DNA from: Escherichia coli
Lineage (GTDB): Bacteria > Pseudomonadota > Gammaproteobacteria > Enterobacterales > Enterobacteriaceae
Assembly (NCBI RefSeq): GCF_044324875.1
Contig: NZ_CP172186.1
DNA: 64,000 nt
Direction: 5' to 3' (one strand)
Of the stretch, positions 1-3,000 are shown one piece after another (the stretch's first letter is position 1; each line of letters begins with the position of its first letter). A program made the position numbers.

Positions 1-3000
1 GTGGCGGCCCTGAACCAGACCTCATTTACTGAAAGCACATACCGTCAGGTAAAGAACCCGAATCCGGTATTCACACCCCGTGAAGGTGCCGGGACGCTGA
101 AGTTCTGCGAAAAACTGATGGAAAAGGCCGTGGGCTTCACCTCCCGTTTTGATTTTGCCGCGCATGTGGCGTATGCCCGTTCGCGCGGCCTGCGCCGGCG
201 TATGCCGCCGGTGCTGCGCCGCCGGGCGATTGATGCGCTGCTGCAGGGGCTGTGTTTCCACTATGATCCGCTGGCCAACCGCGTGCAGTGCTCCATCACC
301 ACGCTGGCCATTGAGTGCGGACTGGCGACGGAGTCTGAGGCCGGGAAACTCTCCATCACCCGTGCCACCCGTGCCCTGAAGTTCCTGTCTGAGCTGGGGC
401 TGATAACCTACCAGACGGAATACGACCCGACAATTGGCTGTAACATCCCGACCGACATCACGTTCACGCCGGCACTGTTTGACTCACTCGATATCTCAGA
501 AGAGGCAGTGGCTTCCGCACGCCGCAGCCGCGTGGAATGGGAAAACAGGCTGCGCAAAAAGCAGGGGATGGATGCGCTGGGTATGGATGAACTGATAGCG
601 AGGGCCTGGCGTTTTGTGCGCGAGCGTTTCCGCAGTTATCAGGCAGAGCTTAAATCCCACGGTATGAAACGTGCCCGTGCGCGCCGCGATGCAGGCAGAA
701 CCCGTCAGGACATTGTCACCCTGGTGAAACGGCAGCTGACACGTGAAATTGCGGAAGGGCGTTTCCGGGGAAGCCTGGAGGCCGTGAAGCGCGAAATCGA
801 CCGTCGCGTGAAGGAACGCATGATAATGTCGCGGAACAACAACTACACACGGCTGGCCACTGCCTCACCCTGAGTTTGACCTCATCTGAATAATCCGGCC
901 TGCGCCGGAGGCTTCCGCACGTCTGAAGCCCGGTGACGCACAAAAAAGCAGCACAGCACACAAAAAACAGCCTCATTATCTGCCTTCCGGCTCGCCTTGC
1001 TCCCCCTGTTTTTCACGCAAAACAGGTATCACAGACGGGGAATTCTGTTTATCCACATTTAACTGCAAGGGACTTCTCCGTAAGGTTACAACCGTTCATG
1101 CTATAAAGCGCCAGCCGCAGGCGTTACAGGGTGCAATGTTTCTTTTAAACCCCAATACTCTATTTCCTTTAAACTACTTAATTACTTCCATTTAAAAAAA
1201 AGACCTATTCAGTGCCTGTCCTGTGGACAGACAAATATGCACCTCCCACGCTGACGCGCGGGCCCCGAACCTCACCGTTCTGGAACCACAACAAAAAACA
1301 TCAGAAATAAAAAAACCACACAAACGCAGCACCGTGCCCACCCCTCATAACTGAAAAGCGAGGCCGCCCCCGCCCGAAGGGCGGGAACAACATCGCTTTT
1401 AATTATGAATGTTGTAACTACATTATCATCGCTGTCAGTCTTCTGGCTGGAAGTCCTCAGTACACGCTCGTAAGCGGCCCTTACGGCCCGCTAACGCGGA
1501 GATACGCCCCGACTTCGGGTAAACCCTCGTCGGGACCACTCCGACCGCGCACAGAAGCTCTCTCATGGCTGAAAGCGGGTATGGTCTGGCAGGGCTGGGG
1601 ATGGGTAAGGTGAAATCTATCAATCAGTGCCGGCTTACGCCGGGCTTCGGCGGTTTTACTCTTGTGCCATATGTAGCTACATTATGCCGCCTTCCATGCC
1701 GCTCACGCGGCATCAGAACAATAAAACCAGCATTAAATGTATTTGCAAAAGTATGAGTAATACAGACTTGTTAACCGGTCCTTTCAGAGGTATCTTTAAG
1801 ACTTGTTAAATAGTCTCAAAGGTACGTTATGCCTAACATCATTCTGTCTGACACCAGTGCAAGTGTCAGTGAACTGAAAAAAAATCCTATGGCTACAGTC
1901 AGTGCCGGAGATGGTTATCCTGTCGCCATTCTTAACCGGAATCAGCCGGCATTCTACTGTGTGCCTGCGGAACTCTATGAAAGGATGCTTGATGCGCTGG
2001 ATGACCAGGAACTGCTGAAACTGGTTACTGAACGCAGCAATCAGCCACTGCATGATGTGGACCTGGACAGTTATTTATGACTTATACAGTAAAATTCAGG
2101 GATGATGCGTTCAAAGAATGGCTGAAACTGGATAAATCCATTCAACAGCAGTTTGCGAAAAAACTAAAGAAATGCAGCGAAAATCCTCATATTCCTTCCG
2201 CAAAACTGCGTGGATTAAAAGACTGCTACAAAATCAAACTTCGCGCATCGGGGGTTCGTCTGGTCTATCAGGTTATTGATGACATGCTAATTATTGCGGT
2301 TGTCGCGGTAGGTAAACGTGAACGTAGTAACGTTTATAATCTCGCCAGTGAGAGAATGAGATAGTTATCTTTAAGGCTGACTGATATTACTTCAAAAGTA
2401 TTTCTGATAGTTATGTTATTTTATTCCACAATGCAGAATATATTCTTTATTCTTTAAGGTCGTTTTTATGATGAAAAATCCATTAGCTTATTTTCATATT
2501 GCCACCTTTTTATTGTCAGGTAAAAGTCGTAATCTGTCAGAATACTGGAAAGCCGAAGTCATCATGCGGGATAAGTTTGTCTTACACCGCCTGATAAGAA
2601 ACGGGATGCAGAGACAACGAGGCTTTCTGATGTGGTGGCGTTTGGCCAATGAGATGTTTATCTACGGAAACAAAAAACAAAGGAAATGTGCGATAAAGAT
2701 AAAAAATGCACTTATGGAACGGTATGGGTGTGATATCGGCCTGGGGGCGCGGATTGGTAAAGGTCTCGTGTTGCCTCATCATGCAGGTATCGTCATTCAT
2801 GGTAATGTTGATATCGGTGAGAATGTCATTATACGGCAGAATACAACCATTGGTGAAAAGGTTTCTGACAGTAGGGAAAACTATATTGTTATTGGCGATA
2901 ATGTCGATATTGGTGCCCATACATGTATTATTGGGTTAAATGTGAAAATCGGAAGTAATGTTAAAATCGGGGCAATGTCTTTTATTATGGAAGATGTACC

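Follow-up and report, generated by a model that had tools for sequence, protein, structure and literature searches.

By alignment with other plasmid replicons, the hairpin-rich segment that occurs twice in the 64,000-nucleotide stretch of Escherichia coli DNA analyzed here (contig NZ_CP172186.1; the window) forms the distal half of the repA4 region, a conserved cis-acting stretch that lies downstream of oriR in IncFII-type replicons and is also found in IncK/Z and IncI1 plasmids. The repeat is real but already explained, being a known replicon segment that has been duplicated. In the joint explanation that we consider probable, the repeat is a repA4-region segment with the leading-strand start, copy 2 is an orphan piece of an FII flank, and the toxin–antitoxin (TA) cassettes are cargo lying past the end of the conserved block.

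Extent of the repeat

An initial annotation of the window had described a palindrome-rich element without a long ORF, present once between repA/oriR and stbDE and once between a resolvase/res region and an RHH–ParE pair. Both copies were found within 2 to 3 nt of the positions given there, with those flanks, and both lie on the + strand as direct repeats (Table 1). Alignment of positions 1389 to 1817 with 53594 to 54018 revealed unrelated flanks and an identity that begins abruptly at CCCGCTAACGCGG (1487 and 53692) and runs to ~1713 and ~53918, where each copy closes with a hairpin (1696–1713 and 53903–53918). The copies differ by six mismatches over the first ~187 bp (~97% identity) and are 92.8% identical over 223 bp when the more variable right end is included. 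Exact matches to a 30-mer of the element numbered two in the window and none in any of 100 shuffles, and an nhmmer search of the window with a profile built from 13 relatives detected no third copy. The absence of a long ORF was likewise confirmed: only ORFs of 62 to 63 aa overlap the element, and these match no NCBIfam family.

Table 1. Features of the window and matches to the conserved block in other replicons
Sequence	Feature	Position	Strand	Remarks
Window	repA, FII-family replication initiator	1..873	+	87% aa identity to R100 RepA1
Window	oriR	roughly 1045-1235
Window	DnaA box TTATCCACA, left end of oriR	1051..1059	+	Aligned with oriR of R1, R100, and pO157
Window	GC-rich hairpin followed by T run, terminator-like, facing oriR	1363..1391	-	Start of near-invariant block; terminator scan
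Window	Predicted Tus-binding Ter site ATTATGAATGTTGTAACTACATT	1402..1424	+	18/23 to TerB; 12/12 core positions
Window	Repeat hairpins	1473-1492; 1497-1543 (nested, three stems); 1630-1643; 1644-1651; 1696-1713
Window	Repeat copy 1	1487..1713	+	Right-hand part of conserved repA4 region
Window	Candidate primer-start zone, three 5'-CTG-3'	1552..1627	-	1552-1554, 1590-1592, 1625-1627 (+ strand coordinates)
Window	stbD/stbE (RelB/RelE-type) TA operon	1829..2364	+	Cargo adjoining replicon, outside element
Window	Left 38-bp Tn3-family inverted repeat, GGGGTCCGCC...CGCTAAG	52843..52880	+
Window	Serine recombinase (resolvase)	52889..53479	-	Between the two inverted repeats
Window	res region	about 53480-53650		Between the two inverted repeats
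Window	Right 38-bp Tn3-family inverted repeat (GGGG...TAAG)	53657..53694	-	29/38 identical to the left one
Window	Repeat copy 2	53692..53918	+	Orphan, truncated; lacks Ter, conserved block 1455-1486, oriR, and repA
Window	RHH antitoxin	53980-54264	+
Window	ParE-family toxin	54264-54539	+
Window	79-aa ORF	54645-54884	+
R1	Block match	2164-2437		94.5% over 274 bp
R100	Block match	90245-90518		94.5% over 274 bp
pO157	Block match	1435-1702
R64 (IncI1)	Block match	2056-2329		~94% identity
p2017.13.01CC_2 (IncK/Z)	Block match	after repA-oriR

Conserved region downstream of oriR

The left end of the window carries an FII-type replicon. A near-identical record annotates 1-873 as incFII family RepA, and the 9-bp DnaA box that begins the origin is the same as that reported in IncFII oriR (PMC2762410). 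Alignment of six replicons from the repA stop codon onward revealed a block of ~470 bp (~1240–1713), of which the repeat makes up just the right-hand part. The block is nearly invariant from ~1385 on, and past ~1713 all six diverge completely. The left edge of the repeat at 1487 is not a natural element boundary, because the conservation of copy 1 extends left to ~1240 and copy 2 is cut by a transposon inverted repeat.

Identity of the block across IncFII (R1, R100, pO157), IncK/Z, and IncI1 (R64) replicons is 89 to 100%, and in all replicons examined it has the same position and orientation, ~600 bp past the repA stop and beyond oriR. Left of it, the R64 origin region does not align with FII oriR, and R64 RepZ gave no tblastn match to the window or to its RepA, despite the common block. 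A BLASTN comparison with IncF plasmids, which the initial annotation had proposed, located the element after oriR in R1, R100, and pO157, with differing neighbors. It matches the R1 and R100 sequence between oriR and tir and overlaps R100 repA4 (40032–40418), covering the 3' third of that ORF. Copy 1 alone has the replicon layout, a few hundred base pairs downstream of oriR on the side of the replication direction, as in R1, R100, and pO157.

The element is widespread. At least 5,000 PLSDB plasmids contain it, with matches in Escherichia, Klebsiella, Salmonella, and Shigella hosts. Complete E. coli genomes hold it at 7,996 places, 7,917 of them on plasmids, in 4,182 of 5,426 genomes, with a median of two places per genome that has any copy. 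A 15-mer scan of the genome collection returned three real homologues amid what were mostly chance matches in unrelated GC-rich genomes, a 15-mer being too short for this use.

Published descriptions agree with this placement. The pEC958 paper puts the R100-type RepFII origin between repA1 and repA4, with tir and pemIK coming next, and the pEC958 TraDIS screen lists repA4 among nine elements required for maintenance. The order in pEntH10407 is repA1, DnaA box/oriR, repA4, a 63-aa ORF, stbD, and stbE, which is the arrangement of copy 1 in the window. The repA4 region is described in the literature as needed for stable inheritance and as containing ter, close to the R1 origin. Compared with the repA4 region of IncFII NR1/R100 and R1, copy 1 shows no substantive difference, although this plasmid has no intact RepA4 frame, and copy 2 is a truncated orphan without Ter, oriR, or repA.

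Coding potential and hairpins

We considered whether conservation of the segment reflects a protein-coding gene, either RepA4 or one of the overlapping 62- to 63-aa ORFs. R1 and R100 have an intact 128-aa repA4 ORF, which ends at the equivalent of window position 1613, and in some RefSeq records PGAP names part of the match "replication-associated protein RepA4." Across lineages, however, the frame is broken or startless while the DNA is nearly invariant. The ATG start is present in R1 and R100 only, and the frame lacks a start or is shortened in the window and in the IncK/Z, R64, pO157, H131, and H132 sequences, where the DNA is nearly identical. PGAP calls RepA4 a pseudogene in record L010, no NCBIfam model matches RepA4 or the overlapping ORFs, and the N-terminal two-thirds of the frame is absent from copy 2. 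We rejected RepA4 as a gene with a conserved frame and regard a coding explanation as highly improbable.

The palindromes are conserved in a different manner. Five hairpins were placed by eye in the repeat and evaluated on 13 sequences, including three divergent relatives from other plasmids (76–81% identity), a partial Pantoea copy, and two paralogues that adjoin oriT. The stem cells were 93% paired, compared with 32 to 42% when the partners were slid, in keeping with the palindrome-rich character first noted for the element. Five base pairs changed on both sides, a number reached by only 2 of 500 shuffles; examples of these compensatory changes are CCCGAC/GTCGGG to CCCGGC/GCCGGG, GGG/CCC to GGC/GCC, and CCGGC/GCCGG to CCCGC/GCGGG. 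In the terminal stem, the pO157 lineage and copy 2 have lost one pair from both arms together, and the loop is freely variable. The terminator-like hairpin to the left of the repeat (1363–1391) has also undergone a compensatory change, from CCCGCCC/GGGCGGG to CCGGCCC/GGGCCGG in R1, R100, and pO157. Because the RepA4 frame is not conserved and the hairpins co-vary, we conclude that the constraint acts on cis-acting DNA. The energy of single-strand folding was unremarkable (z = -0.66 for the + strand and -1.62 for the - strand), and a wobble test for the folding strand counted 3 G.T against 2 A.C, favoring neither strand.

Toxin–antitoxin neighbors and RNA readings

The initial annotation had also proposed that the element may be a small-RNA gene or a conserved leader. 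A TA operon lies downstream of each copy, and the element has GC-rich hairpins, one of which precedes TTTT on the + strand; both features are in accord with a small RNA or with a common 5' leader through which the TA operons are regulated. The Rfam scan that it had called for yielded no match at the gathering threshold and nothing relevant at E<=10, we found no promoter-like site on the + strand within the element or ahead of it, and its position and orientation are fixed, always after oriR. We rejected a small RNA or cis-regulatory RNA on these results. The leader reading fared no better, since in some plasmids the block stands ahead of genes outside TA systems (in R1 and R100, for instance, tir), and the intergenic sequence past the end of the repeat is separate for each TA pair. 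Both RNA readings together are very unlikely.

The genes that follow the block vary: tir-pemIK in R1 and R100, an arsenic-type regulator in R64, a different RelE/antitoxin pair in p2017.13.01CC_2, stbDE at window copy 1, and RHH-ParE in pO157. The two copies in the window are followed by different TA operons because the conserved replicon ends at ~1713 and variable maintenance cargo begins there. The association with TA operons is a clustering of maintenance cargo beside the replicon and not a regulatory link.

Origin of copy 2

Copy 2 begins at the outer end of the right inverted repeat of a Tn3-family pair (38-bp terminal repeats in inverted orientation), which encloses only the resolvase gene and the res region. 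To its right, the window segment from 53694 to 54842, comprising copy 2, RHH-ParE, and the next ORF, is 95.7% identical to pO157 1484-2620, which directly follows the pO157 repA-oriR; the genes at 53980-54884 (RHH-ParE and the 79-aa ORF) are syntenic with pO157 1769-2629. When a 1-kb query spanning the resolvase–element–TA junction was searched, most plasmids matched no farther left than query position ~393, where the element begins, and the resolvase junction was common to 17 of the best 5,000 records. In records where the intact element is joined to this RHH-ParE pair, both stand right after repA-oriR, as in pO157 and an IncI1-type plasmid.

These comparisons mark copy 2 as a 1.15-kb piece of a pO157-like FII flank and not as a functional unit of a second replicon. 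The initial annotation had set against its reading the case of a complete second replicon near copy 2; within the window neither a second repA nor a second oriR was detected. Its suggestion that copy 2 is a remnant of a second FII-type replicon is borne out in substance by the match to the pO157 flank. The resolvase-mediated cointegration that it invoked finds no backing in the sequence, because copy 2 is joined at the outer end of a Tn3-family inverted repeat of 38 bp, not at a res-site crossover. Copy 2 would instead have arisen when the oriR-proximal side of a pO157-like flank was replaced at the end of that inverted repeat. The same orphan fragment occurs in pEC958, further truncated, and in Klebsiella pJX4-2, where the same left edge is directly preceded by IS4321, an insertion sequence that targets the terminal inverted repeats of the Tn21 family. 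From these orphan versions we infer that the junction is old and has since spread.

Two sharp-edged copies might also suggest a small mobile, MITE-like repeat that inserted twice. The element itself, however, has neither terminal inverted repeats nor target duplications; on the left, copy 2 starts where another element ends, the conservation of copy 1 continues leftward past the supposed boundary, and the replicon position is the same in all replicons examined for context. Having no ends of its own, the element was rejected as a mobile repeat, and we give this reading practically no credence.

Ter site and proposed leading-strand start

The predicted Ter site lies to the left of the repeat and not inside it, and copy 2 therefore lacks it. 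It is a 23-bp site with G6 and a core containing GTTGTAAC (positions 6 and 8–18), is invariant in all six aligned replicons, and holds the sole occurrence of GNNNGTTGTAAC in the window. Relative to the E. coli Tus-Ter fork barrier, it matches all 12 TerB core positions but falls outside the repeated segment. A degenerate, inverted Ter-like sequence (9/12 core positions) is present at 1670-1692, in the variable part of the repeat.

The leading strand of R1 and R100 reportedly starts ~380 to 400 bp downstream of oriR, at a "G site." At a G site (ssiA), DnaG primase alone primes on SSB-coated single-stranded DNA. By its position, the repeat would cover, ~360 to 390 bp past oriR, what we take to be the primase G site and leading-strand start of R1/R100. 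Counting a 188-bp oriR from the DnaA box places the end of the origin near 1235, and the three 5'-CTG-3' trinucleotides of the - strand are found 320, 358, and 393 bp beyond this point; with replication proceeding rightward, the - strand serves as template for the leading strand. All three trinucleotides are inside the repeat; CTG is common, which makes this weak evidence. The one at 1590-1592 sits in TGGTCTGGCAGG, which is kept even in the distant paralogues next to oriT of F and R100. From the distance to oriR and the reported start, we tentatively assign the repeat to the segment of the G site and leading-strand start.

In the mechanism that we propose, RepA and DnaA would open oriR, and DnaB would unwind rightward and expose the - strand of the repeat segment. 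The hairpins of the segment would stay free of SSB, and DnaG alone would begin priming the leading strand at a 5'-CTG-3', for which the positions 1552, 1590, and 1625 are candidates. Synthesis would then proceed once around the plasmid until the returning fork is stopped by Tus at Ter, just before it displaces its own 5' end. Ter, ~170 bp before the start segment, would thus serve as a stop for the fork after one full round. The folding energies, the wobble count, and the search for G4-type origins described below do not strengthen this proposal, and other points count against it. On one reading of Tus polarity, Ter would also face the initial fork on its way from oriR to the G site, and the terminal hairpins (1630–1713) are conserved beyond the obvious need of a primase site.

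The proposed mode resembles that of the complementary-strand origin of phage G4, the archetypal primase-only G site, in its SSB-resistant hairpins and DnaG start at 5'-CTG-3', but no sequence similarity was detected and the hairpin layout is not obviously the same. A sensitive blastn search of 50,697 phage records gave no relevant match to G4-type origins, and a G4-type origin by sequence (G4, alpha3, or St-1 complementary-strand origin) was rejected. To our knowledge, no sequence similarity of the G site to G4-type origins is to be expected. The element also showed no similarity to ssiA of the F plasmid (upstream of repE), and local alignment with a pACYC184/p15A segment near a reported ssi signal, for which an approximate query sequence was used, scored below the shuffle mean.

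We think it unlikely that the repeat is some other cis-acting determinant of stability or insulation within the repA4 region, made of protein-binding palindromes or terminators, with the G site lying partly or wholly to the left of 1487. In the insulation version, terminators would keep transcription of the neighboring cargo from reaching oriR and the leading-strand start. Terminator-like hairpins with a T run do occur, at 1638-1652 on the + strand and at 1363-1391 on the - strand, but the T run of the former is not conserved in the divergent relative H131 or in the oriT-proximal paralogues. A role in stability would be consistent with the terminal hairpin ATGCCGC-N4-GCGGCAT, whose stem is kept as described above while its loop varies, and with the strongly conserved block GGTACACGCTCGTAAGCGGCCCT to the left of the repeat; moreover, openly available papers connect the repA4 region with stability and with ter without dividing these roles among its parts. 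Against this, no candidate binding protein is known, and the reported start distance of ~380 to 400 bp fits inside the repeat better than to its left. We favor assignment of the repeat to the leading-strand start.

Paralogue next to oriT

A divergent paralogue of the right half of the element adjoins oriT in F (65308–65539) and in R100 (49718–49948), with ~64 to 65% identity. The shared parts are TGGTCTGGCAGG, the CCGGC/GCCGG and GC-TTCG-GC hairpins, and the terminal ATGCCGC-N4-GCGGCAT hairpin. Gene orientations suggest that the transferred strand of F has the same sense as the leading-strand template at oriR. The element and its oriT paralogue could conceivably form one family of single-stranded DNA primase-entry modules, serving the vegetative leading-strand start in one case and the start of the complementary strand in the conjugal recipient in the other, a speculative idea that we consider rather doubtful.

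The single-stranded promoters of F and of IncI leading regions (Frpo/ssi) are likewise hairpin-rich, noncoding, repeated within plasmids, and active on single-stranded DNA. They belong to a different sequence family, and Frpo recruits RNA polymerase rather than primase. Our profile had no match at F Frpo1 (upstream of ygeA) or Frpo2 (upstream of ssb), and a Frpo-type promoter was rejected.

Discussion

Work on the region described here, as a component of the basic replicon of R1/R100, goes back to the 1980s and 1990s, and identifying the region matters little for discovery. The block is nonetheless unannotated in nearly all of the thousands of plasmid records that carry it, or is mislabeled as a RepA4 pseudogene or a hypothetical protein, and it is therefore repeatedly rediscovered as a mystery repeat. 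For plasmid biology, it is at the right end of the block that different TA and maintenance cassettes recurrently join the replicon, and additional orphan copies signal that replicons have fused or rearranged in the past. In this plasmid, copies 1 and 2 are direct repeats ~52 kb apart and a possible substrate for homologous deletion. If the element and its oriT paralogue do belong to a single family of primase-entry modules, plasmid establishment might still benefit from orphans like copy 2.

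Ter and Ter-like sites and a hairpin in and around copy 1

A canonical Ter site and a degenerate, inverted Ter-like site lie on either side of the presumed leading-strand start and thus bracket it (see table). As we read the polarity of Tus, the strong site would likewise be oriented toward the initial replication fork departing oriR. The terminator-like hairpin nearby carries compensatory change on both sides between the lineage of the window and R64 and that of R1, R100, and pO157.

Features located in the window
Feature	Window position	Remarks
GC-rich hairpin with T run on the - strand, terminator-like, facing oriR	1363-1391	
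Tus-binding Ter site, canonical	1402-1424	12/12 core; just left of copy 1
Ter-like site, inverted, degenerate	1670-1692	9/12 core; in the repeat's variable part
ALIL pseudoknot (Rfam)	17315-17431	
ALIL pseudoknot (Rfam)	34625-34741	
ALIL pseudoknot (Rfam)	47489-47575	
~850-bp unit with a 38-bp Tn3-family inverted repeat at each end	52843-53694	

The first two ALIL pseudoknot matches, elsewhere in the window, have identical Rfam scores.

Relatives of the element in F and R100

A diverged paralogue of the element's right half (~64-65% identity) is found in F at 65308-65539 (15308-15539 of the F plasmid piece L004) and in R100 at 49718-49948 (L008), where it adjoins oriT and is flanked by ygeB (the DUF932 gene) and gene X (SLT). 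The paralogue retains TGGTCTGGCAGG and both hairpins, as well as the terminal hairpin ATGCCGC-N4-GCGGCAT, and corresponds to neither Frpo1 nor Frpo2. Judging from gene orientations, we infer that the transferred strand of F agrees in sense with the template of the leading strand at oriR. The motif of the terminal hairpin (CCTTCAAGCCGC-TTTC-GCGGCATA) also recurs faintly at the leading region's distal end, 5′ of the DNA methylase gene, in F (53985-54023; L004 3985-4023) and R100 (25843-25880).

F also carries an incomplete and diverged version of the element's left half (40687-40785 of the F plasmid piece L003; profile E = 5e-9). It is located between the RepFIB and pif regions, distant from any FII-type repA, and may be another orphan relic.

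The resolvase unit left of copy 2

The unit to the left of copy 2 lacks a transposase; a gene for a serine resolvase and the associated res region are its entire content. Its inverted repeats are identical at 29 of 38 positions, and it is not a simple insertion, since the 5-bp sequences on its two sides differ. A remnant of an IS3-family transposase (ORF 52684-52821) lies to its left. A related inverted repeat-like stretch of 50 bp occurs 3′ of pemK in R1 (3962-4011) and R100 (92043-92092).

A CRISPR spacer and the block shared with R64

We compared window 1556-1590 with a type I-E CRISPR array adjoining cas2e on the E. coli A30 chromosome (NZ_CP028745.1; 373-433 of the piece L136). A 32-nt spacer of this array matches window 1559-1590 at 31 positions, and a canonical AAG PAM precedes the protospacer; this is a natural spacer targeting the conserved replicon segment.

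In a tblastn search, RepZ of the IncI1 plasmid R64 had no match in the window, where repA occupies 1-873, and the R64 origin region gave no alignment with the FII oriR, whereas R64 and the window share ~94% identity in the ~470-bp block downstream of the origin. This contrast suggests either that the block has been exchanged between replicon families or that the constraint acting on it is unusually strong.
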